In this document: piece after piece, positions 1 through 18,261 of the stretch | Layout: the number at the start of each line of letters is the position of its first letter | How positions within the stretch are numbered: position 1 is the stretch's first letter | From: Escherichia coli | Lineage (GTDB): Bacteria; Pseudomonadota; Gammaproteobacteria; Enterobacterales; Enterobacteriaceae | Length of the DNA stretch: 64,000 nt | NCBI RefSeq assembly: GCF_003334785.1 | Contig: NZ_QOWV01000001.1 | Reading direction: 5' to 3' (one strand) | Translations under genes and position numbers: made by a program | The notes under the pieces: generated by a model | Told to the model about the DNA's origin: nothing | The model's database searches: none | Seen by the model: the letters and a program-made list of their open reading frames with translations, nothing else

Positions 1-1609
1 TACCACTATCCGGGCCTTCGGCATCAATTCCTGTTGAGCCAGCGATACGAAGCTCTGCAAGATTATGTACATCAACCGCACGTTTTAATCGTACAACGCC
101 GGGATCTTGCGGTTCACGTTCGACAACATCGTGCGTTAAGACAGCTGCCTGCTGCCATTCTTGTAACGTTAATGCTGTCCAGGCTTGTTCAACCTCCAGA
201 TTAATATTACGTGGCTCGATCACTTCTGCTTTTTTTAATTCATTTTCTGCTGCACGAGGCCAACCGCGGGCTTGTAACACACTCGCGTAATCAATGCGCA
301 GTCCCTGATTTCCTGGTGCGTTATAAGCAAGCTCTCTGGCTGTCATTTCAGCCTGAGGAAGATCATTACTATATTTTGCTACGGTTGAGAGAAACGAATG
401 CCCCTGTAACCAGGTATCATTCGGGATGCTCGTAGGCGTGCCCATTAACCGAAGGAAAGGCGGCGAAGTATTAATGGTATGTTGGGTGACAGTTAGCGCG
501 CCCGGATAATTTTCACTCTCCAGGTGGCTGTAAAAGAGATCCGCAAGTTCTTCATCGGATAAATCCGGGGCAATGGTCTCCTTGTGATAAAAGAGCTCGG
601 TCATTATTGACTGTGCTTTTTTCGGCTGATGATCTTTGAGATAAGCCGATGCAACCCAATATTGCCCCCAGGGCGGAATAATTTGCCCCGTCTTTTTTAA
701 TCGCTGATAGTGAGAAATAACGTCTTTATAACGATCGCGAGTTAATAACGCGCCAAGATGATCAACCTGAATACGCTGGTACTGGGCAGTGCGGTCTGGG
801 TTATCGTGCCACAGAATTTCTAATGCAGCGTATTGGGCGAGGGCGCGATCGGCAATGGCATAACGTTCACTTTCACTGCGCGTAGGCATAAACGACAGTC
901 TGACCAGTTCGGCATGAATATCAGCGCGAATATCTGGCGTTAAATTGGCATCGTCAATCGCGGCAGCAAGTTGATTATTACGTAATGCCTGCACGTATTC
1001 TGTGGGATATTGTTGCGTAGATGCATTTTCAGGTAATGACTCTGTCATCGCCCGTAATTCATCCTGATGACGCCCCGCCAGTTTATAGATATAGGCTTCT
1101 GCGAGTAAATTGGCTTTGTCCGGTGCTCCAGAGTTAAGCTGCTTAAGTTTAACCAGCGCAGTATCATAGTGACCAGCATCTGCCAGGGTTAAAATTTGTC
1201 CCCGTTGATAATCCTTATTTTGCGGCTCCAGAGAGAGCGCCTTTTGCCACAGTGTAAGCGAGTTTTGCCATTGTTGCAGGTTACGATAAGCGACGGCGAC
1301 AGCTGCATAACCACGCGCTGGTAATTGCTGATGACGGTAGCGGTTGTAAACGGTAATAACCTGTTTATCTTGCCCGGCCCATAAGGCAATCTGTAACCAG
1401 TCAGCAATTTGGTTATTGCTGAGTGCTGATTTTAGTGCAAACCATGACAAAGCTGGCTGAGTATTACCCTTGCGAGCTTCAATAATCAATGCATCATAGG
1501 CGTTATTAACAGCACTCTTCGCCGCGGGACTCGCTGCTAAAAATGCGGCAGTAAGAAGTTTCAAAGCCCATTTGGTTTTCGGGCACCTTTTTCTGCTACT
1601 TGAATACAT
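1..1609 (-). CDS. pgaA: PGA export outer-membrane porin PgaA, N-terminal ~536 codons (gene continues beyond window start)
   Basis: Minus-strand reading from ATG (complement of 1607-1609) gives MYSSSRKRCPKTKWALKLL..., recognised as PgaA N-terminus; no stop before the window edge. Confidence 0.85.
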   Translation of the reverse strand, partial: MYSSSRKRCPKTKWALKLLTAAFLAASPAAKSAVNNAYDALIIEARKGNTQPALSWFALKSALSNNQIADWLQIALWAGQDKQVITVYNRYRHQQLPARGYAAVAVAYRNLQQWQNSLTLWQKALSLEPQNKDYQRGQILTLADAGHYDTALVKLKQLNSGAPDKANLLAEAYIYKLAGRHQDELRAMTESLPENASTQQYPTEYVQALRNNQLAAAIDDANLTPDIRADIHAELVRLSFMPTRSESERYAIADRALAQYAALEILWHDNPDRTAQYQRIQVDHLGALLTRDRYKDVISHYQRLKKTGQIIPPWGQYWVASAYLKDHQPKKAQSIMTELFYHKETIAPDLSDEELADLFYSHLESENYPGALTVTQHTINTSPPFLRLMGTPTSIPNDTWLQGHSFLSTVAKYSNDLPQAEMTARELAYNAPGNQGLRIDYASVLQARGWPRAAENELKKAEVIEPRNINLEVEQAWTALTLQEWQQAAVLTHDVVEREPQDPGVVRLKRAVDVHNLAELRIAGSTGIDAEGPDSG

Positions 1610-1843
1610 CCTGTATTACTCCATGTATTGCCAAAATCTCTCTCTGTATCTAATTACAGGTAACTGAAAAGAAAGATATTTTTGCACCTCATAATCCGTT
1701 ATTAAACGCGGAAGAGAGACGTGAATTGTTGATGATGAGAAGAAGAAATGATGAGCAGAGTGTCCATATAAAATCCTTTTCTCGCCCGAAAATCCATTCC
1801 AATGATGAGGATCTTCAGGAATACGGCATAAATCCCAATGCCT
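1610..1843 (-). promoter_or_regulatory. pgaA 5' leader / divergent pgaA-ycdT promoter region, AT-rich, multiple GGA motifs on the pgaA strand
   Basis: 586-bp AT-rich gap between divergent pgaA and ycdT; several GGA motifs on the minus strand including one at the SD. The pgaA leader is a known CsrA target (established knowledge); exact extent not determinable from sequence. Confidence 0.5.
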
Positions 1844-2195
1844 TTTTCAAAATAAATTAGGATTAAAATAATTAAATCAGTAAATTCCGATGCATGATTT
1901 CGGATTTTTCGAAAGTCCTGATGAAAGGCTGCGCTACGGCACTCACGGATTTAATTGTTATTCCTAATGTATCTATGAATTAATGTTTTATAAGGATTTT
2001 CTATAACCATTTATAAGTATTTTCAAGCCTGGCTTGTTGCAAACAATGTATAAAGCACTTAGGCAATAATAATTACATTCAGCAACTATCATCATCGGTA
2101 TTGTTTGTGGGCGGAATTTCATATTGACAACAGTACAGTTCTTATATCTATTAATAATAGAAAGGGATCTACAACCTACAGATTGGTGTAGCTTT

Positions 2196-3554
2196 ATGGA
2201 AAAAGACTATTTGAGAATGAGTAGTACTGTATTAGTGAGCTTATTGTTTGGGCTTGCTTTGGTTTTGGTGAATAGTTGGTTTAATCAGCCAGGCGTTGAG
2301 GAAGTTGTTCCACGATCAACCTATCTGATGGTAATGATTGCTTTATTTTTTATCGATACTGTTGCATTTATTTTTATGCAGTTGTATTTCATTTATGACC
2401 GTAGGCAATTTTCAAACTGTGTACTTAGTTTGGCTTTTCTGAGTTGTTTGATTTACTTTGTTATAACCGTCATTATCATTCAGCAAATTATTGAGGAGCG
2501 TTTGACAAGCAGTGTTGTCCAAAATGACATTGCAATCTATTATTTGTTTCGTCAGATGAGTTTGTGCATATTAATATTTCTGGCATTGGTGAATAAAGTT
2601 AGTGAAAACACAAAACAGCGCAATTTATTTTCCAAAAAAATGACTTTGTGCATAAGTTTGTTTTTTGTTTTTGGGGGGCCGATAGTTGCTCACATACTTT
2701 CTAGTCATTATGAGAGCTACAATTTACACATTGCCGAGTTAACCAATGAAAATGGTCAGGTGGTTTGGAAAGCCTCATATGTTACCATAATGATTTTCAT
2801 GTGGTTAACCTTGCTTTCGGTTAATCTATACTTTAATGGTTTACGCTATGATATCTGGAATGGAGTGACGGTGATTGCTTTTTGTGCCGTACTGTACAAT
2901 ATCTCTCTGTTATTTATGAGCAGGTATAGCGTGTCCACTTGGTATATTAGTCGCACTATTGAAGTAGTCAGTAAGTTAACCGTTATGGTAATATTTATGT
3001 GCCATATATTCAGTGCGCTACGAGTAACAAAGAACATTGCACATCGCGATCCCTTAACCAATATATTTAACAGAAATTATTTTTTTAATGAACTGACAGT
3101 TCAATCAGCATCAGCCCAAAAAACGCCTTATTGCGTCATGATTATGGATATCGACCACTTCAAAAAAGTCAACGACACCTGGGGGCATCCGGTTGGCGAT
3201 CAGGTGATAAAAACAGTGGTGAATATCATTGGGAAAAGCATACGACCAGATGACCTTTTAGCGCGCGTCGGCGGCGAAGAGTTTGGCGTCTTGCTGACGG
3301 ACATCGATACTGAACGTGCGAAAGCTTTAGCGGAAAGGATTCGGGAAAATGTTGAGCGTTTAACTGGCGATAATCCTGAATACGCTATACCACAAAAAGT
3401 GACGATTAGTATTGGCGCTGTTGTGACTCAGGAAAATGCGTTAAACCCAAATGAGATCTATCGACTGGCTGATAACGCACTTTACGAGGCGAAAGAGACC
3501 GGGCGTAATAAGGTGGTTGTGAGGGATGTGGTGAATTTTTGTGAGTCACCATAA
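2196..3554 (+). CDS. dgcT: Diguanylate cyclase (GGDEF domain, membrane-anchored) YcdT/DgcT
   Basis: ORF 2124..3554 trimmed to ATG at 2196 (MEKDYLRMSS...), 452 aa; N-terminal hydrophobic segments; GGEEF active-site motif (RVGGEEFGV) near the C-terminus. Confidence 0.9.
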   Translation: MEKDYLRMSSTVLVSLLFGLALVLVNSWFNQPGVEEVVPRSTYLMVMIALFFIDTVAFIFMQLYFIYDRRQFSNCVLSLAFLSCLIYFVITVIIIQQIIEERLTSSVVQNDIAIYYLFRQMSLCILIFLALVNKVSENTKQRNLFSKKMTLCISLFFVFGGPIVAHILSSHYESYNLHIAELTNENGQVVWKASYVTIMIFMWLTLLSVNLYFNGLRYDIWNGVTVIAFCAVLYNISLLFMSRYSVSTWYISRTIEVVSKLTVMVIFMCHIFSALRVTKNIAHRDPLTNIFNRNYFFNELTVQSASAQKTPYCVMIMDIDHFKKVNDTWGHPVGDQVIKTVVNIIGKSIRPDDLLARVGGEEFGVLLTDIDTERAKALAERIRENVERLTGDNPEYAIPQKVTISIGAVVTQENALNPNEIYRLADNALYEAKETGRNKVVVRDVVNFCESP

Positions 3555-3594
3555 AGCGGCATTTTGATCCTACCCACGTAATATGGACACAGGC

Positions 3595-4461
3595 CTAAGC
3601 GAGGTTCTTGTTTTCAAATTGTTCCGGACTGAGGCCGCCACACCAACTGTGCCGCCGCCACCGATTGTAATCACATTCGATATAATTAAACACCGTTGCC
3701 CGCATTATTTCCCGGCTGATAAAGTGTTCTCCATGGATACATTCCACTTTCAGCGAATGAAAGAAGCTTTCCACGCAGGCATTATCGTAGCAGCAACCTT
3801 TTGCGCTCATACTTCCACGCAGATTATGCCGCTTCAGTTGCGCCTGATAATCTGCTGAACAGTACTGGCCTCCACGGTCCGTGTGAACGATAACGTTCCG
3901 GGGCCTCTTACGCCGCCACAGCGCCATCTGCAGGGCATCGCAGGCCAGTTGCGCCGTCATGCGTGGCGACATTGACCAGCCAATAACGGCACGTGACCAC
4001 AGGTCAATGACCACTGCCAGATACAGCCAGCCTTCATCTGTACGTAAGTACGTGATGTCTCCTGCCCACTTCTGGTTCGGGCCACTGGCGTAAAAATCCT
4101 GCTCCAACAGATTTTCTGACACAGGCAGGCCGTGTGCGCGGTAGCTGACCGGGCTGAACTTCCGGGAGGCCTTTGCCCTCAGTCCCTGACGGCGCAGGCT
4201 TGCCGCCACGGTTTTTACGTTAAAGGGGTAACCCTGAGCACGCAGTTCATCCGTCAGGCGTGGGGCACCGTAACGCTGTTTTGACCGGGTAAAAGCCGCG
4301 AGGACAACGCTGTCGCAGTGTTGGCGGAACTGCTGACGCGTGCTTATCCTTGTCCGCCGCTGACACCACGTATACCAGCCGCTGCGGGCCACCCGGAGCA
4401 CGCGGCACATTGCTTTGATGCTGAACTCAGCCTGATGTTTTTCAATAAAGACATACTTCAT
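3595..4461 (-). CDS. insF: IS3 transposase OrfB (InsF), DDE integrase-type catalytic domain
   Basis: 288-aa ORF; start overlaps the orfA stop (ATGA); recognised as IS3 OrfB. Confidence 0.9.
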
Positions 4462-4766
4462 TTCAGGCGCTTCGCGAAGTATGTCGCGGCCTTTTGGAGG
4501 ATAGCCAGCTCTTCATCCCGTTCTGCCAGCTGGCGTTTGAGACGTGCAATCTCGGTAGACATCTCCAGTTCACGTTCAGAAGACGTCTGCTGATTTTGCT
4601 GTTTACTGCGCCAGTTGTAGAGTTGTGATTCATACAGGCTGAGTTCACGGGCTGCGGCAGTAACACCGATGCGTTCAGCAAGCTTCAGGGCTTCACTGCG
4701 AAATTCAGGCGAATGCTGTTTACGGGGTTTTTTACTGGTTGATACTGTTTTTGTCATGTGAGTCAC
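4458..4766 (-). CDS. insE: IS3 transposase OrfA (InsE), helix-turn-helix / leucine-zipper
   Basis: 102-aa ORF ([35 protein letters not shown]...); A-AAA-G slippery motif (ccaaaag on minus strand, plus ~4491-4497) near its 3' end, the established IS3 -1 frameshift site. Confidence 0.9.
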
Positions 4767-4822
4767 CTCTGACTGAGAGTTTACTCACTTAGCCGCGTGT
4801 CCACTATTGCTGGGTAAGATCA

Positions 4823-5166
4823 GTGCCTGGCACACGCGTTTGATGGAAGACGGCGTTCAGGCAATGCGCGATTATCTTGCCGGACTGGATATCGCTTCGC
4901 CAGAGCATCAGGTTCTGATGAACGTAACAGCAAAAAGCGAGGTCGCTCCGTCAATTATCAAAGAAAATCTCTCATTACACTTAACTCATACGGTGAAATG
5001 GACTGAATCTCTCGATACATTTCTGAATATGCCAACCCCGGTAGCTTTCCTTGAAATAAGTAATAAGCCCTATTTGGGGAATATGTTAAATGATTTTGCT
5101 GGCGTGGATCAGCAACGAGTTATGCATTGTCGTAAAGCATTTAGTGATGCAAAGGTATTCAAATGA
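4823..5166 (+). pseudogene. ymdE: ymdE remnant: C-terminal fragment of a FabD-like malonyl-CoA:ACP transacylase paralogue, truncated at the IS3 boundary
   Basis: Reading frame begins exactly at the IS3 right end; translation (…VKWTESLDTFLNMPTPVAFLEISNKPYLGNML…) resembles the C-terminus of FabD (…VQWTKSVEYMAAQGVEHLYEVGPGKVL…). No N-terminal part exists between ycdT and IS3. Confidence 0.6.
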
Positions 5167-6149
5167 TTCCTGATTATTTAACTTTTATTCGCTTTCAGGA
5201 TAAACGAAATCTGATATACATTTATGCTATTGGACTTATTCTGATAGGCTTTTATTGGAAGAATGCAGGGTTTACTTTTCCATCAGAGGATATTGGTGTA
5301 GTTAGTGGGATTCTGGCTCTGGTGCTGTATAATTTTATTTTTGATCTCAAGGCGTACTGGGCTTATAAATGCGTCACGAAGAATATCGATTTTTCGTGGT
5401 TTAAGAAAAAGCAGAACCACAAAATAGAATTATTTCTTACACAACCTCTGGTGGCAGGATTTCTGTCGTTAATCATGTTGAGTGCAATGAGTTGGGGGCT
5501 ATACCAGCTTCTACCCTCGTTATATGCGCTGTTCCTGATTTCGTTACTTGGGCCGTTGGTCATCTTTCTGCTGTTTCGGATGATCCGCACCAGTTATGTC
5601 AAGCAGGTCGCTATTTCAGTAGCGAAAAAAGTAAAATATAAAAGTCTGACTCGCTATGTGCTGCTTTCGGTGTGCATCTCAACGGTTGTTAACCTGCTTA
5701 CTATCAGCCCGTTGCGTAACAGTGATTCTTTTGTGACAGAGGGGCAGTGGTTAACGTTTAAATCGATAATTGCATTGCTCATTCTTTGTGGCGTAGTGTT
5801 GGCGATTAATCTGTTTTTTCTGCGCTTCTCCAAGCGGTACGCTTTTCTGGGCAGGCTTTTTTTGCAGGAAATCGATCTGTTTTTCTCCAGTGAAAATGCG
5901 TTGTCGACCTTTTTTGCCAAGCCGCTTTGGCTTCGGTTATTCATATTGCTGGTTATTGAAGTGATGTGGATTACGCTGGTGTCGGTATTGGCAACGCTTG
6001 TAGAATGGCGGATTTGGTTTGAAGCCTATTTTTTACTCTGCTATGTACCGTGCTTAATTTACTATTTTTTCTATTGTCGATTCCTCTGGCATAACGATTT
6101 TATGATGGCATGTGACATGTATTTCCGTTGGGGGCATTTTAATAAGTGA
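5163..6149 (+). CDS. ycdU: Inner membrane protein YcdU (multi-pass, function unknown)
   Basis: 328-aa ORF, highly hydrophobic, AT-rich codon usage; matches recalled YcdU length. Confidence 0.8.
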
Positions 6150-6280
6150 GGAAGTGATAGGAAGTGACCAGATAATACATATATGTTCTGTACTCTCTTG
6201 CGCATTTTGATTGTTGACTGAGTAACCAGACAGTTGATGTGCACGATTTCCCCTCGCCCTAACAGACGTGGGCGGGGGCA

Positions 6281-6903
6281 CCCGGTGTGTGCAATATACG
6301 AAAAAAAAGCCCGTACTTTCGTACGAGCTCTTCTTTAAATATGGCGGTGAGGGGGGGATTGACTCGCTTCGCTCGCCCTGCGGGCAGCCCGCTCACTGCG
6401 TTCACGGTCTGTCCAACTGGCTGTCGCCAGTTGTCGAACCCCGGTCGGGGCTTCTCATCCCCCCGGTGTGTGCAATATACGAAAAAAAAGCCCGTACTTT
6501 CGTACGAGCTCTTCTTTAAATATGGCGGTGAGGGGGGGATTGACTCGCTTCGCTCGCCCTGCGGGCAGCCCGCTCACTGCGTTCACGGTCTGTCCAACTG
6601 GCTGTCGCCAGTTGTCGAACCCCGGTCGGGGCTTCTCATCCCCCCGGTGTGTGCAATATACGAAAAAAAAGCCCGTACTTTCGTACGAGCTCTTCTTTAA
6701 ATATGGCGGTGAGGGGGGGATTGACTCGCTTCGCTCGCCCTGCGGGCAGCCCGCTCACTGCGTTCACGGTCTGTCCAACTGGCTGTCGCCAGTTGTCGAA
6801 CCCCGGTCGGGGCTTCTCATCCCCCCGGTGTGTGCAATATACGAAAAAAAAGCCCGTACTTTCGTACGAGCTCTTCTTTAAATATGGCGGTGAGGGGGGG
6901 ATT
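6281..6903. repeat. Tandem direct repeat array: three perfect 181-bp units (starts 6281, 6462, 6643) plus a fourth partial unit running into the serX 3' end
   Basis: Identical text recurs with 181-bp period; each unit holds a copy of the last 19 nt of serX (plus strand tggcggtgagggggggatt) and the adjacent hairpin plus A/T-run terminator. Confidence 0.95.
6843..6876 (-). terminator. Rho-independent terminator immediately downstream of serX (copied in each repeat unit)
   Basis: On the tRNA strand: short spacer after CCA, hairpin (gctcgtac gaaa gtacgggc), then a run of 8 T. Confidence 0.75.
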
Positions 6904-6972
6904 CGAACCCCCGATACGTTGCCGTATACACACTTTCCAGGCGTGCTCCTTCAGCCACTCGGACACCTCACC
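6885..6972 (-). tRNA. serX: tRNA-Ser (long variable arm, 88 nt, CCA encoded)
   Basis: Reverse complement reads GGTGAGGTGTCCGAGTGGCTGAAGGAGCACGCCTGGAAAGTGTGTATACGGCAACGTATCGGGGGTTCGAATCCCCCCCTCACCGCCA; GGTTCGAATCC T-arm and GGA anticodon loop context. Confidence 0.93.
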
Positions 6973-7166
6973 AAATTGTCGTTCCTGTCTTGCTGGAACG
7001 GGCGCTAATTTAGGGAAATCATGACCTGAGGTCAACAAACTTTTTGAAAAAATCGCGCGTTTATTCAAACTTCAATCAATGTGTGGTTTTAATAAGCGAA
7101 ATCTGCTTTTTTTGCCACCGACCACGGATTTGTTATGCTGGTGGCCTTTGTAGATCATAATGATAA

Positions 7167-11865: not shown

Positions 11866-12516
<651 letters not shown>

Positions 12517-13270
12517 GATGAAACCCCGCTTTTTTTATTGATCGCACACCTGACAGCTGCCTCTAAAATAGAAGCACCAGAAGTACTGACAGATGTTGCA
12601 CTGCTGTGTGTAGTAATAAATCAGCCCTAAATGGGTAAAATATAAAACTAATGGATTACATCTGATTTCAATCTAGCCATTACAAATCTTAAATCAAGTG
12701 TTAAACATGTAACTAAATGTAACTCGTTATATTAAAATGTTAACCTTAAGGTTTTATTAAGTTTAGAAATGATAGAAAAGTTGTACATTTGGTTTTTATT
12801 GCACAATTTTAAAAAATCATACAAATGGTGATAACTTACTAATAATGCATATAAAAAATATTTCGGTGTAGTCCTTTCGTCATGTAAAACGTTCTTGTTT
12901 TTTCTCCACACCTCCGTGGACAATTTTTTACTGCAAAAAGACGAGGTTTGTCACGGCTTGTGCGCAAGACATATCGCAGCAATCAGCGACGGGCAAGAAG
13001 AATGACTGTCTGGTGCTTTTTGATAGCGGAAAGCGGAGATTTAAAAGAAAACAAAATATTTTTTTGCGTAGATAACAGCGTATTTACGTGGGTTTTAATA
13101 CTTTGGTATGAACTAAAAAAGAAAAATACAACGCGCGGGTGAGTTATTAAAAATATTTCCGCAGACATACTTTCCATCGTAACGCAGCGTTAACAAAATA
13201 CAGGTTGCGTTAACAACCAAGTTGAAATGATTTAATTTCTTAAATGTACGACCAGGTCCAGGGTGACAAC
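12517..13270. promoter_or_regulatory. Divergent csgD / csgBAC intergenic control region (754 bp, strongly AT-rich)
   Basis: Long AT-rich gap between divergent start codons; holds the csgD 5'UTR and both promoters (established knowledge). Individual binding sites not mapped here. Confidence 0.85.
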
Positions 13271-13726
13271 ATGAAAAACAAATTGTTATTTATGATGTTA
13301 ACAATACTGGGTGCGCCTGGGATTGCAGCCGCAGCAGGTTATGATTTAGCTAATTCAGAATATAACTTCGCGGTAAATGAATTGAGTAAGTCTTCATTTA
13401 ATCAGGCAGCCATAATTGGTCAAGCTGGGACTAATAATAGTGCTCAGTTACGGCAGGGAGGCTCAAAACTTTTGGCGGTTGTTGCGCAAGAAGGTAGTAG
13501 CAACCGGGCAAAGATTGACCAGACAGGAGATTATAACCTTGCATATATTGATCAGGCGGGCAGTGCCAACGATGCCAGTATTTCGCAAGGTGCTTATGGT
13601 AATACTGCGATGATTATCCAGAAAGGTTCTGGTAATAAAGCAAATATTACACAGTATGGTACTCAAAAAACGGCAATTGTAGTGCAGAGACAGTCGCAAA
13701 TGGCTATTCGCGTGACACAACGTTAA
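13271..13726 (+). CDS. csgB: Minor curlin nucleator CsgB
   Basis: ORF 13244..13726 trimmed to ATG 13271 (MKNKLLFMMLTILGAPGIAAA...), 151 aa; imperfect Q/N/G/S/A-rich repeats. Confidence 0.95.
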   Translation: MKNKLLFMMLTILGAPGIAAAAGYDLANSEYNFAVNELSKSSFNQAAIIGQAGTNNSAQLRQGGSKLLAVVAQEGSSNRAKIDQTGDYNLAYIDQAGSANDASISQGAYGNTAMIIQKGSGNKANITQYGTQKTAIVVQRQSQMAIRVTQR

Positions 13727-17103: not shown

Positions 17104-18261
17104 TTAACGGGCTGGTGCTTTATCGTTCTCACGCTTAACAACCGGTTTACCAGAGAACAAAAACTTCAGTAACGGGATGCGCAAATGAATTTCATACAGA
17201 ATTATCGCAATCCCTACTACAAATATCAGGCCACAGAGAAAACCAAGCCAGTTGGAGGTGATGTGCGGTGTAATGTATGCGCCGAAAAACAGCGTTAACG
17301 GGTGGTGAACCAGATAGATAAACAGCGATGCGTTAACAAAATAAGTCACCCGCGCTGACTGGAAGTTAAGCAAACGGTGGCCAAAGGAGAAGACCACATT
17401 CACCATCCACAGACCGAGGACCATGGTGATCACCGACTCGGTTTCGTACATCCAGGCATCGCCACTGCCATAGCGCTGGTTGAGTAAATAAGCGACAAAC
17501 GCCAATGCTGCTGCAAGGGTACAGCCACGAGACGGCGTGGTAAACAAGGCTTTAAGATGAGGGAAAATGAAAGCCAGTGCGCCGAGGATAAAGAACGGCA
17601 AATAAAACAGCGTTTGCATGACAATAAAATTGAACATGCCATTACTCAGAATGGGCGGATACACAATAAAAATCGTTCTTCTTATTACCGCATAACCGAT
17701 GCCGAGGCATAAAAAAATCACCGATAGTTTTACCATCGAGAATTTTTTATTCGTTTTATCAGAATTTTCTAAATTATTTCTGATGCGCTTAAATATCCAT
17801 ACGCACAGCGTCGTCATGACCACTAACACCAGTAAAAACCACAGGTGTGATATTAATTCCCAGGCCAACGTATTATATTTGTCATACAATGACAGCCCAG
17901 GCCAACTTTCCGCTTTTCCTTTGACATATTGCAGCATAATAAATTGCGGTAATGTCAGTAGGGGGATGGCTGTTAACATCGGGATACCTACACGTTCGAC
18001 ACGTACTTTCCACCATTTTTTCAAGGGATAGCGTAAAAAAAGCATGTAGGAAAAGTAGCCGGATATAACGAAAAATACCTGCATGCGGAACGAGTGGATG
18101 AAGTCATTAAAAAGGGTCAGCCACAATGATGATTCGGCGCTATTCACATGCCATGTATGGCTCGAATAGATTAAAGAAATATGAAAAGGTATCCCTAACA
18201 ACATCAGCCAGGCGCGGATGGAGTCGAGGAAATATTCACGTTGCGCGGGTACTGGGTTCAT
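17104..18261 (-). CDS. opgC: Osmoregulated periplasmic glucan succinyltransferase OpgC (MdoC), membrane acyltransferase
   Basis: 385-aa hydrophobic ORF convergent with clsC, divergent from opgGH. Confidence 0.92.

Follow-up and report, generated by a model that had tools for sequence, protein, structure and literature searches.

We describe here the interval between pgaA and the tRNA gene serX, which takes up about the first 7 kb of a 64,000-nucleotide stretch of Escherichia coli DNA (the window). Besides pgaA the interval holds the diguanylate cyclase gene dgcT (also named ycdT), a copy of the insertion sequence (IS) IS3, a remnant of the gene ymdE, the gene ycdU and a tandem array of RtT units. 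It was very probably built in three layers: an old pga-dgcT module, a 33-kb island inserted beside it, and erosion of that island by IS3 down to the form found in E. coli K-12. The window DNA was annotated through identical DNA in RefSeq (gene layout, IS3, RtT), and the published description of MG1655, with IS3D, pseudogene ymdE, ycdU and serX, agrees with the window coordinates (PMC5635171). The features are listed below; GC is the guanine plus cytosine fraction and GC3 the same fraction at third codon positions.

1-1609, minus strand: 5' part of pgaA, poly-GlcNAc export porin; ATG at 1609, in frame with 0 stops (RefSeq); GC 0.473, GC3 0.405
1610-2195, no strand: divergent intergenic region between pgaA and dgcT, 586 bp; GC 0.338, the lowest of the examined stretch; conserved in every allele that has pgaA and dgcT
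2196-3554, plus strand: dgcT (ycdT), membrane-anchored GGDEF diguanylate cyclase of 452 aa; NCBIfam GGDEF match of 156.9 bits
3555-3564, no strand: 10-bp remnant of dgcT-downstream DNA, AGCGGCATTT; base-for-base match to O157 (GCGGCATTTTAGCGGG) up to IS3
3565-4822, minus strand: IS3 (IS3D of K-12), intact, 1258 bp; right inverted repeat (IRR) at 3565, left inverted repeat (IRL) end at 4822; no target-site duplication
4458-4766, minus strand: IS3 orfA, 102 aa
3595-4461, minus strand: IS3 orfB, 288 aa, overlapping orfA at 4458-4461
4823-5166, plus strand: ymdE stub, the C-terminal 113 codons and stop of a 313-aa FabD-like acyltransferase; collinear with O157 ymdE from O157rc 33166
5163-6149, plus strand: ycdU, intact, a helical membrane protein of 328 aa
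6150-6280, no strand: non-coding right end of the island, 131 bp of unique sequence; boundary at 6280/6281, the same in O157 and RM10042
6281-6903, minus strand: RtT tandem array, 181 bp x 3.4 (TRF, 100% identity); three Rfam RF00391 matches at 46.3 bits; outside the island
6885-6972, minus strand: serX, tRNA-Ser(GGA), found by ARAGORN and by the Rfam tRNA model; ghrA follows

A first description of this DNA, made from the letters without database searches (the sequence-only reading), took 1610-6149 as one AT-rich islet that included pgaA, horizontally acquired beside serX and since decayed. As pgaA starts at 1609 on the minus strand, that islet begins just outside the gene.

IS3 and the DNA it replaced

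The IS3 copy is intact, as had been recognized from the letters. Its 1258 bp end in TGATCC...AAGATCA with 28 of the 40 terminal inverted-repeat positions matching, its two reading frames overlap, and it scores 339 bits on the NCBIfam model transpos_IS3 (cutoff 160) over model positions 1-87 and 90-369. RefSeq describes the identical IS3 as a transposase with a programmed frameshift, not a pseudogene, and the element is more than 99.6% identical to IS3 copies throughout E. coli. Its flanks, TTT (3562-3564) and GTG (4823-4825), do not match and form no 3-bp target duplication, again as first noticed; the flanks in the RM10042 genome, TTT and GGC, are likewise unmatched. Such an absence is expected of an IS3 copy that took part in a deletion, and is no argument against its identity as IS3.

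The junctions identify what is missing. Because the gap between the dgcT stop and IS3 is only 10 bp (AGCGGCATTT), no N-terminal part of ymdE lies between the two. The left site in O157 reads ...TAAAGCGGCATTTTAGCGGG..., and inside ymdE the O157 sequence reads ...AATGCTGGCGGTTAAAGG... and, 188 bp further on, ...GTGAGCGGTGCCTGG.... We give coordinates in the O157 form as O157rc positions, and in what follows a slash marks a join. The K-12 form found in the window equals O157 up to CATTT/T at the left and again from O157rc 33166, where the ymdE match resumes; its junctions are ...GCGGCATTT-IS3-GTGCCTGG..., and IS3 replaces 31,741 bp of the O157 form. The RM10042 junctions are ...GCGGCATTT-IS3-GGCGGTTAAAGG..., the right one running ...ATCA/GGCGGTTAAAGG. 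The left junctions of RM10042 and the window are identical and the two IS3 copies differ at 2 of 1258 positions, while the right junction of RM10042 lies 188 bp further upstream in ymdE, so that this allele is without 31,553 bp of the O157 form. It is also the older of the two, because it retains more of ymdE.

The sequence-only reading had implied an IS-associated deletion of the N-terminal part of ymdE. The deletion is indeed linked to IS3; it is not small, amounting to 31.74 kb, and it took two steps. The DNA absent at the IS3 site of the window is OI-47, known from E. coli O157:H7 EDL933 as z1528-z1556 and flanked by dgcT on the left and by the 3' part of ymdE with ycdU on the right; we obtain 31,741 bp where 31,727 bp are published (PMC8565820).

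Alleles across E. coli

The comparison set consists of 5,426 complete E. coli genomes, to which all allele counts refer. The allele features were found in the following numbers.

Any ymdE or ycdU DNA: 2,627 genomes
dgcT-IS3 junction as in the window: 2,299 genomes
Extra 182 bp of ymdE: 1,117 genomes
Full-length ymdE: 390 genomes
dgcT-vmpA junction: 389 genomes
IS3-less dgcT-ymdE junction, with a ymdE stub of 528 bp: 9 genomes
Short allele, with dgcT, about 105 bp and serX, without ymdE, ycdU and RtT array: 1,398 genomes
DUF2726 allele, with a DUF2726 gene alone between phoH and serX, without pga and dgcT: 1,044 genomes
IS1 deletion joining pgaD to ycdU: one strain inspected

The full-island, IS3, short, DUF2726 and IS3-less classes together cover 5,139 of the 5,426 genomes. 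The full island is carried by O157:H7, O55:H7 and a few others. Subtraction of these counts gives about 720 genomes with the 528-bp stub of the RM10042 type and about 1,510 with the 343-bp stub of the K-12 type, and about 70 of the genomes with the dgcT-IS3 junction fall outside both. A simple IS3 insertion at either junction with OI-47 retained, for which we searched with synthetic junction queries for both sites, occurs in 0 of the 5,426 genomes.

Two of the rarer arrangements are worth describing. In USDA-ARS-USMARC-51688 (L045 2271-4486) an IS1-linked deletion runs from pgaD to the start of ycdU; pgaCBA, dgcT, IS3 and the ymdE stub are gone and ycdU is intact. In the DUF2726 allele the gene stands in place of pga-dgcT-ymdE-ycdU, as at L010 8306-8992 and L011 8306-8992.

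The nine IS3-less genomes bear directly on the history of the locus. An identical ymdE fragment in strains that never carried the element would have spoken against an IS3-linked deletion; what these genomes have is the longer, 528-bp stub together with scars exactly where IS3 would stand, and the K-12 stub occurs in no strain without IS3. The three scars are GCGGC/GGTT, GCGG/TTAA and GCGGCA/GGCGGTT. A deletion between GGC, GCGG or CA repeats converts the RM10042 allele into each of them, and the repeats that form the scars lie within 4 bp of the IS3 ends. The reverse does not work: the RM10042 allele cannot be obtained from the IS3-less forms by simple insertion, as its ATTT matches O157. Because RM10042 holds this O157-like ATTT and the scars derive from its allele, the IS3-less state is secondary, and arose at least three times. 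Separate deletions in K-12 and in O104:H4, whose left ends are 4 bp apart, were also considered and are ruled out by the RM10042 allele and the three scars.

OI-47 was defined as O157 DNA missing from K-12, vmpA was described by Richter et al. as inserted downstream of ycdT, and the full form is present in only about 390 of the 5,426 genomes. From these facts one could take OI-47 as an O157-specific insertion into a K-12-like ancestor, with the K-12 arrangement as the older one. We hold this to be very improbable. A stub cannot regenerate full-length ymdE, K-12 keeps 4 bp (ATTT) of O157-type dgcT-downstream sequence beyond the IS3-less junction, and in other genera the ymdE-ycdU pair always stands within the whole cluster described below.

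Two modules with separate histories

Comparison with the short allele shows where the island was inserted. The window and the short allele are homologous up to 3517 and then again from 6281 (in a repeat copy) or from 6783. The last 12 codons of dgcT (3518-3554) are non-ancestral, having been supplied by the island at its left end. DgcT has 452 aa in K-12 and O157 and ends there in ...RDVVNFCESP, versus 455 aa in the short allele, which ends in ...KEAEILINRKDDE, and in the outgroup locus L017, which ends in the matching ...TEAENLMNWKDDD. The difference begins after ...GRNKVV, and the native C-terminal tail that the island replaced is 15 codons long.

L017 comes from a scan of genome contigs with DgcT, in which it was the one useful outgroup locus, the other 27 matches being unrelated GGDEF proteins or fragments. 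It belongs to a divergent Escherichia that is about 90% identical to the window in the ghrA-csg region, and its gene order is efeB-phoH-pgaDCBA-dgcT-RtT units-serX. In L017, as in the short allele, RtT-type sequence follows the dgcT stop directly, and the homology of the window to the short allele and to the RtT/serX-downstream sequence of the outgroup resumes at 6281. Over pgaA-dgcT, L017 7816-11331 is only about 78-79% identical to window 3-3526, against about 90% for the adjacent ghrA-csg genes, which points to faster evolution of the module or to its exchange.

In the simplest reading, window 3518-6280 would be foreign DNA, 33.2 kb of it in O157, that replaced the dgcT tail and about 45 bp downstream. 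The pga-dgcT pair forms an accessory module of its own, older and low in GC3, which about a quarter of the genomes lack. The two have separate histories, because pga-dgcT alone abuts RtT/serX in 1,398 genomes and in the outgroup. What the sequence-only reading proposed for the whole of 1610-6149 thus divides: horizontal acquisition beside serX followed by decay, as it had envisaged, holds for the ymdE stub and ycdU, whereas a single island is contradicted by the greater age of pga-dgcT, which is found in a divergent Escherichia, and by the many genomes in which dgcT borders serX directly.

serX and the RtT array

The serX side of the locus is repetitive. Each 181-bp unit carries the last 19 nt of serX, which gives three extra copies besides serX itself, and the 14-bp core TGGCGGTGAGGGGG occurs at 6342, 6523, 6704 and 6885, once in serX and once per unit. 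RefSeq annotates the units downstream of serX as RtT sRNA. The three matches to RF00391 each span model positions 1-130 and, at 46.3 bits, exceed the gathering score of 45 by a small margin. The copy number of the unit ranges from 0 to 3 across strains, with 0 in RM10042 and STEC299, 1 in O104:H4, 2 in MB56 and 3 in the window, RM8082 and USMARC-51688. The window units are 100% identical to each other, and copy number varies independently of the neighbouring island. Variant RtT-type units are present in the outgroup Escherichia (L017 11370-11760).

Repeats of this kind are reportedly known downstream of tyrT (Egan and Landy 1978; Bosl and Kersten 1991). The likeness to those of RF00391 is in the tandem units of about 180 bp, every one of which closes with the final 19 nt of the tRNA upstream; the difference is that the units here lie 3' of serX, in 0-3 copies, and those of the RF00391 background 3' of tyrT. 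The array is a property of serX and no footprint of the ymdE-ycdU island, because it also occurs where the whole pga-ycdU region is absent, as in RM8082, which has the array and lacks pga, dgcT, ymdE and ycdU. The repeated serX 3' ends cited by the sequence-only reading are therefore present, and yet they do not mark this island. Its placement of the islet immediately 3' of serX has the correct side of the gene and is loose in distance, since 735 bp (the 131 bp of unique sequence and the RtT array) separate ycdU from serX.

Islands with an integrase are inserted at serX in O104:H4 and in O157, and the att (attachment) repeat TGGCGGTGAGGGGG and islands integrated at serX have been described (PMC3064760). 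In O104:H4 (L001 7218-10057) the single RtT unit leads directly into a tyrosine recombinase and a DUF3987 protein, so that serX of this strain carries a P4-type island, just as it carries OI-48 in O157. The P4-integrase islands at serX/serW (OI-43/48, SpLE1, SRL-PAI) occupy the same flank of this tRNA gene and directly adjoin ycdU in O157 and O104:H4. They differ from the ymdE-ycdU island in having an integrase and TGGCGGTGAGGGGG at both ends, whereas the latter has neither and sits beyond the distal repeat. No integrase reading frame lies between pgaA and serX in the window and none is annotated in the 33-kb form of O157, whose nearest integrase is that of the neighbouring OI-48-type island. 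Allowing up to 2 mismatches, we find no copy of TGGCGGTGAGGGGG at the dgcT edge and none near phoH/pgaD, where the gap between the two genes is 50 bp. The island's right edge does not fall on a copy of the serX 3' end but 61 bp past one. What the island does share with integrase-type tRNA islands is its composition and its presence/absence polymorphism, with five structural alleles; it lacks the integrase and the bracketing attL/attR. It adjoins a tRNA gene, yet lacks the classical signature of an integrase-type tRNA island.

One may still ask if the whole of 1610-6149 was a single island, integrated at the 3' end of serX by an integrase and later decayed. The entire phoH-serX interval is variable, with 1,044 genomes carrying the DUF2726 gene alone; Goldstone et al. 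name pgaABCD-ycdT-insEF-ymdE-ycdU, flanked by efeB/phoH and ghrA, a genome island (PMC4951805); GC3 is low in pgaA and dgcT alike (about 0.41); and serX is a proven integration site. Such an origin is nonetheless unlikely, given that the region is without an integrase, that the att core is confined to the serX side, within the RtT units, and is found neither at the dgcT edge nor in the phoH-pgaD gap, that pga-dgcT without ymdE and ycdU abuts RtT/serX in the short allele and the outgroup, and that the RtT array also exists in strains without pga-ycdU.

Base composition

Our composition reference is the 47 open reading frames (ORFs) to the right of serX, with GC 0.515 +/- 0.033 and GC3 0.541 +/- 0.056. 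Against these, dgcT (GC 0.386, GC3 0.411), the ymdE stub (GC 0.436, GC3 0.412), ycdU (GC 0.405, GC3 0.480) and the intergenic DNA are low in GC, which bears out the AT-richness first noticed from the letters, except that IS3, at GC 0.536, is above the window average. The GC and GC3 of dgcT and the ymdE stub are 2-4 standard deviations (sd) under the reference. For GC3 alone the figure is 2.3-2.4 sd for dgcT, pgaA and the ymdE stub and just 1.1 sd for ycdU. The GC of OI-47 is 0.463. In 500-bp windows, GC falls under 0.40 in seven runs across the 64 kb, two of them inside 1610-6149; other such stretches are 12201-13500 (the csgD-csgB intergenic region), 17601-18200, 28201-28900 and 30001-30900. 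Low GC is thus real for all parts except IS3, weakest for ycdU, and not unique to 1610-6149.

The low GC might in principle reflect no more than membrane-protein composition and AT-rich regulatory DNA in an ordinary piece of core genome. Both dgcT and ycdU are rich in hydrophobic residues, the GC3 of ycdU (0.48) is close to the reference, and the csgD-csgB intergenic region is equally AT-rich. We give this explanation almost no credence, in view of the GC3 of dgcT, pgaA and the ymdE stub and of at least five structural alleles that differ by presence and absence across the genomes.

ymdE, ycdU and the lost cluster

The O157 segment shows what ymdE and ycdU belonged to. From 5' to 3' it begins with vmpA (an EAL protein), a hypothetical gene, grvA and a short-chain dehydrogenase/reductase (SDR) gene, followed by a chaperone-usher fimbrial operon and a two-partner secretion pair. 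Then comes a lipid- or polyketide-type cluster of 15 genes: acpS, a ketoreductase (KR), a FabZ-like dehydratase (DH), an acyl carrier protein (ACP), a GcvT-like protein, an 852-aa double ketosynthase (KS), a second ketosynthase, an ABC/FtsX exporter, a LolA-like protein, three hypothetical genes, the full-length ymdE of 313 aa and ycdU. The last two are adjacent at the 3' end, and the window keeps the last 1.3 genes of the cluster.

Full-length O157 YmdE matches Pfam Acyl_transf_1 (1.8e-24) and scores 178.7 on TIGR00128, under the FabD equivalog cutoff of 260.9. Because the acyltransferase domain is present and the score is under that cutoff, YmdE is a FabD paralog and not FabD itself. The stub in the window covers only TIGR00128 positions 197-264 of 290, with 37 bits against the cutoff of 261. 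The GHSVGEYS motif (the GHSxG nucleophile) falls in the deleted part, and the stub is the last third of the protein, starting just before the conserved His. Because the catalytic serine region is lost, the K-12 stub cannot act as a transferase, and is a dead gene fragment, whereas ycdU survives there as an intact orphan of the lost cluster.

YcdU homologs are confined to Enterobacterales, at 39-73% identity. In all three contexts that we inspected (Enterobacter, Klebsiella oxytoca and another enterobacterium) ycdU is the terminal gene of the same cluster, and the order before it, KS-KS, KS, ABC/FtsX, LolA-like, FabD-like, is that of O157. YmdE is 74% identical between O157 and L015. In L015 (9058-21002) and L016, from an enterobacterium, an SDR gene with 80% identity to that of OI-47 stands directly after the ymdE-ycdU cluster, and beyond it lie conjugative-transfer genes (TraG_N, coupling protein), then a chaperone-usher operon and a regulator of the winged-helix type. 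A conjugative element may therefore be the source of both halves of OI-47.

YcdU matches no Pfam or NCBIfam family. Its AlphaFold model (pLDDT 87.9, pTM 0.85) is an all-helical membrane protein without an informative structural relative. The three hypothetical proteins and the LolA-like protein of the cluster have no NCBIfam match, and a literature search for this gene combination gave nothing relevant. A scan of 3400-7100 for promoters and terminators gave match counts equal to the shuffled expectation, with no evident promoter from IS3 into ymdE-ycdU; only a promoter-like site of serX and repeated hairpins of the serX terminator stood out.

We propose tentatively that selection could have preserved ycdU, after the loss of its cluster, as an orphan membrane protein that still functions, and that the 15-gene cluster, with AcpS, KR, DH, ACP, two KS proteins (one of them a fused double KS), an ABC exporter of the MacB type, YcdU and the GcvT-like, LolA-like and FabD-like proteins, could make an exported, uncharacterised enterobacterial lipid. 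The gene is intact in five of five alleles compared, and its K-12 and O157 forms differ by 10 synonymous and 4 non-synonymous codon changes; both are compatible with a functional ycdU, as is the report of ymdE and ycdU in a proposed mastitis-specific core genome within phylogroup A (Goldstone et al., PMC4951805).

Proposed history of the locus

In the ancestor, the AT-rich biofilm module pgaA-dgcT would have stood directly beside serX. An island of 33 kb would then have been inserted between about codon 441 of dgcT and the serX-proximal RtT sequence, replacing the native dgcT tail and some 45 bp downstream; the manner of this insertion is inferred. The island would have brought the new dgcT tail, vmpA, grvA, the SDR gene, the fimbrial operon, the secretion pair and the 15-gene cluster, which is mostly OI-47. 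IS3 then took the place of 31,553 bp in the line from which most A/B1-like strains descend, starting 10 bp past the stop codon of dgcT and reaching halfway into ymdE. A similar second event cost ymdE a further 188 bp beside IS3, giving the K-12 allele. Later, a few strains would have lost IS3 by slippage between 2-4-bp repeats beside its ends. The allele structures, their junction sequences, their counts and the order of the events are read from the genomes themselves.

IS3-family elements transpose by a copy-out-paste-in route, and the deletions next to them usually come about through a second nearby copy and recombination between the copies. By analogy, the most likely route is that two IS3 copies in direct orientation recombined homologously to leave one IS3. 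Such a route would account for the absent target duplication, because recombination between two copies leaves IS3 with flanks from different insertion sites.

Several points weigh against this history. The polarity of the insertion comes from the single outgroup locus L017, whose pga-dgcT is only 78% identical to that of K-12, versus about 90% in the flanking genes. Neither a two-copy nor a simple-insertion intermediate occurs in the 5,426 genomes, and other routes to an IS3-linked deletion would be indistinguishable from the one proposed. The numbers of K-12-type and RM10042-type genomes are differences between other counts. The order of events is that of the allele structures, and the alleles may have spread by recombination or by descent.

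Relation to known systems

The O islands, OI-47 among them, are said to have been introduced by Perna et al. 2001. In the literature OI-47 is a gain of O157, whereas the junctions here make it a loss of K-12 through IS3. The inserted unit is also larger than OI-47, at 33.2 kb, adding the dgcT tail, the 3' part of ymdE, ycdU and the 131 bp of unique sequence (all within window 3518-6280).

Deletions of the rbs operon linked to IS150 in long-term evolved E. coli B, reportedly described by Cooper et al. 2001, resemble the IS3 series in that a single copy of an IS3-family element is left, one junction stays unchanged, the adjacent DNA is lost stepwise and there is no target duplication. The events here differ in being natural, ancient and common to about 2,300 genomes and in showing no two-copy intermediate, so that their mechanism is drawn by analogy.

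Goldstone et al. 2016 reported that IS3 foreshortens ymdE, that a 945-bp homologue exists in other phylogroups and that the region is absent in part of the population (PMC4951805). Their island has the same genes and the same IS3-truncated ymdE as ours. They treat it as one island with a stub that is maybe functional, whereas we find two modules and a stub without the catalytic serine region; we add the 528-bp intermediate allele and the scars of IS3 loss.

Earlier publications already cover OI-47, the "genome island" from pga to ycdU and the truncation of ymdE by IS3. New here are the polarity, with OI-47 lost from K-12, the IS3 series in two steps through a common intermediate allele, the scars of IS3 loss, the replaced dgcT tail and the recognition that ymdE-ycdU forms the end of a conserved cluster.

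Biological meaning

The significance of these results is modest, as little of it reaches beyond housekeeping. The difference between K-12 and O157 at this locus is to be re-read as a loss of OI-47 from K-12 via IS3, not as a simple gain by O157. The ymdE stub is a junction artefact without the catalytic part, which weakens the idea of a functional, selected gene in mastitis strains. The locus is also a clean natural case in which IS3-linked erosion proceeded in steps and IS3 itself was afterwards, in rare strains, lost with microhomology scars left behind. The residual question is that of YcdU and the lost cluster, and ycdU offers a handle on this uncharacterised enterobacterial lipid cluster.

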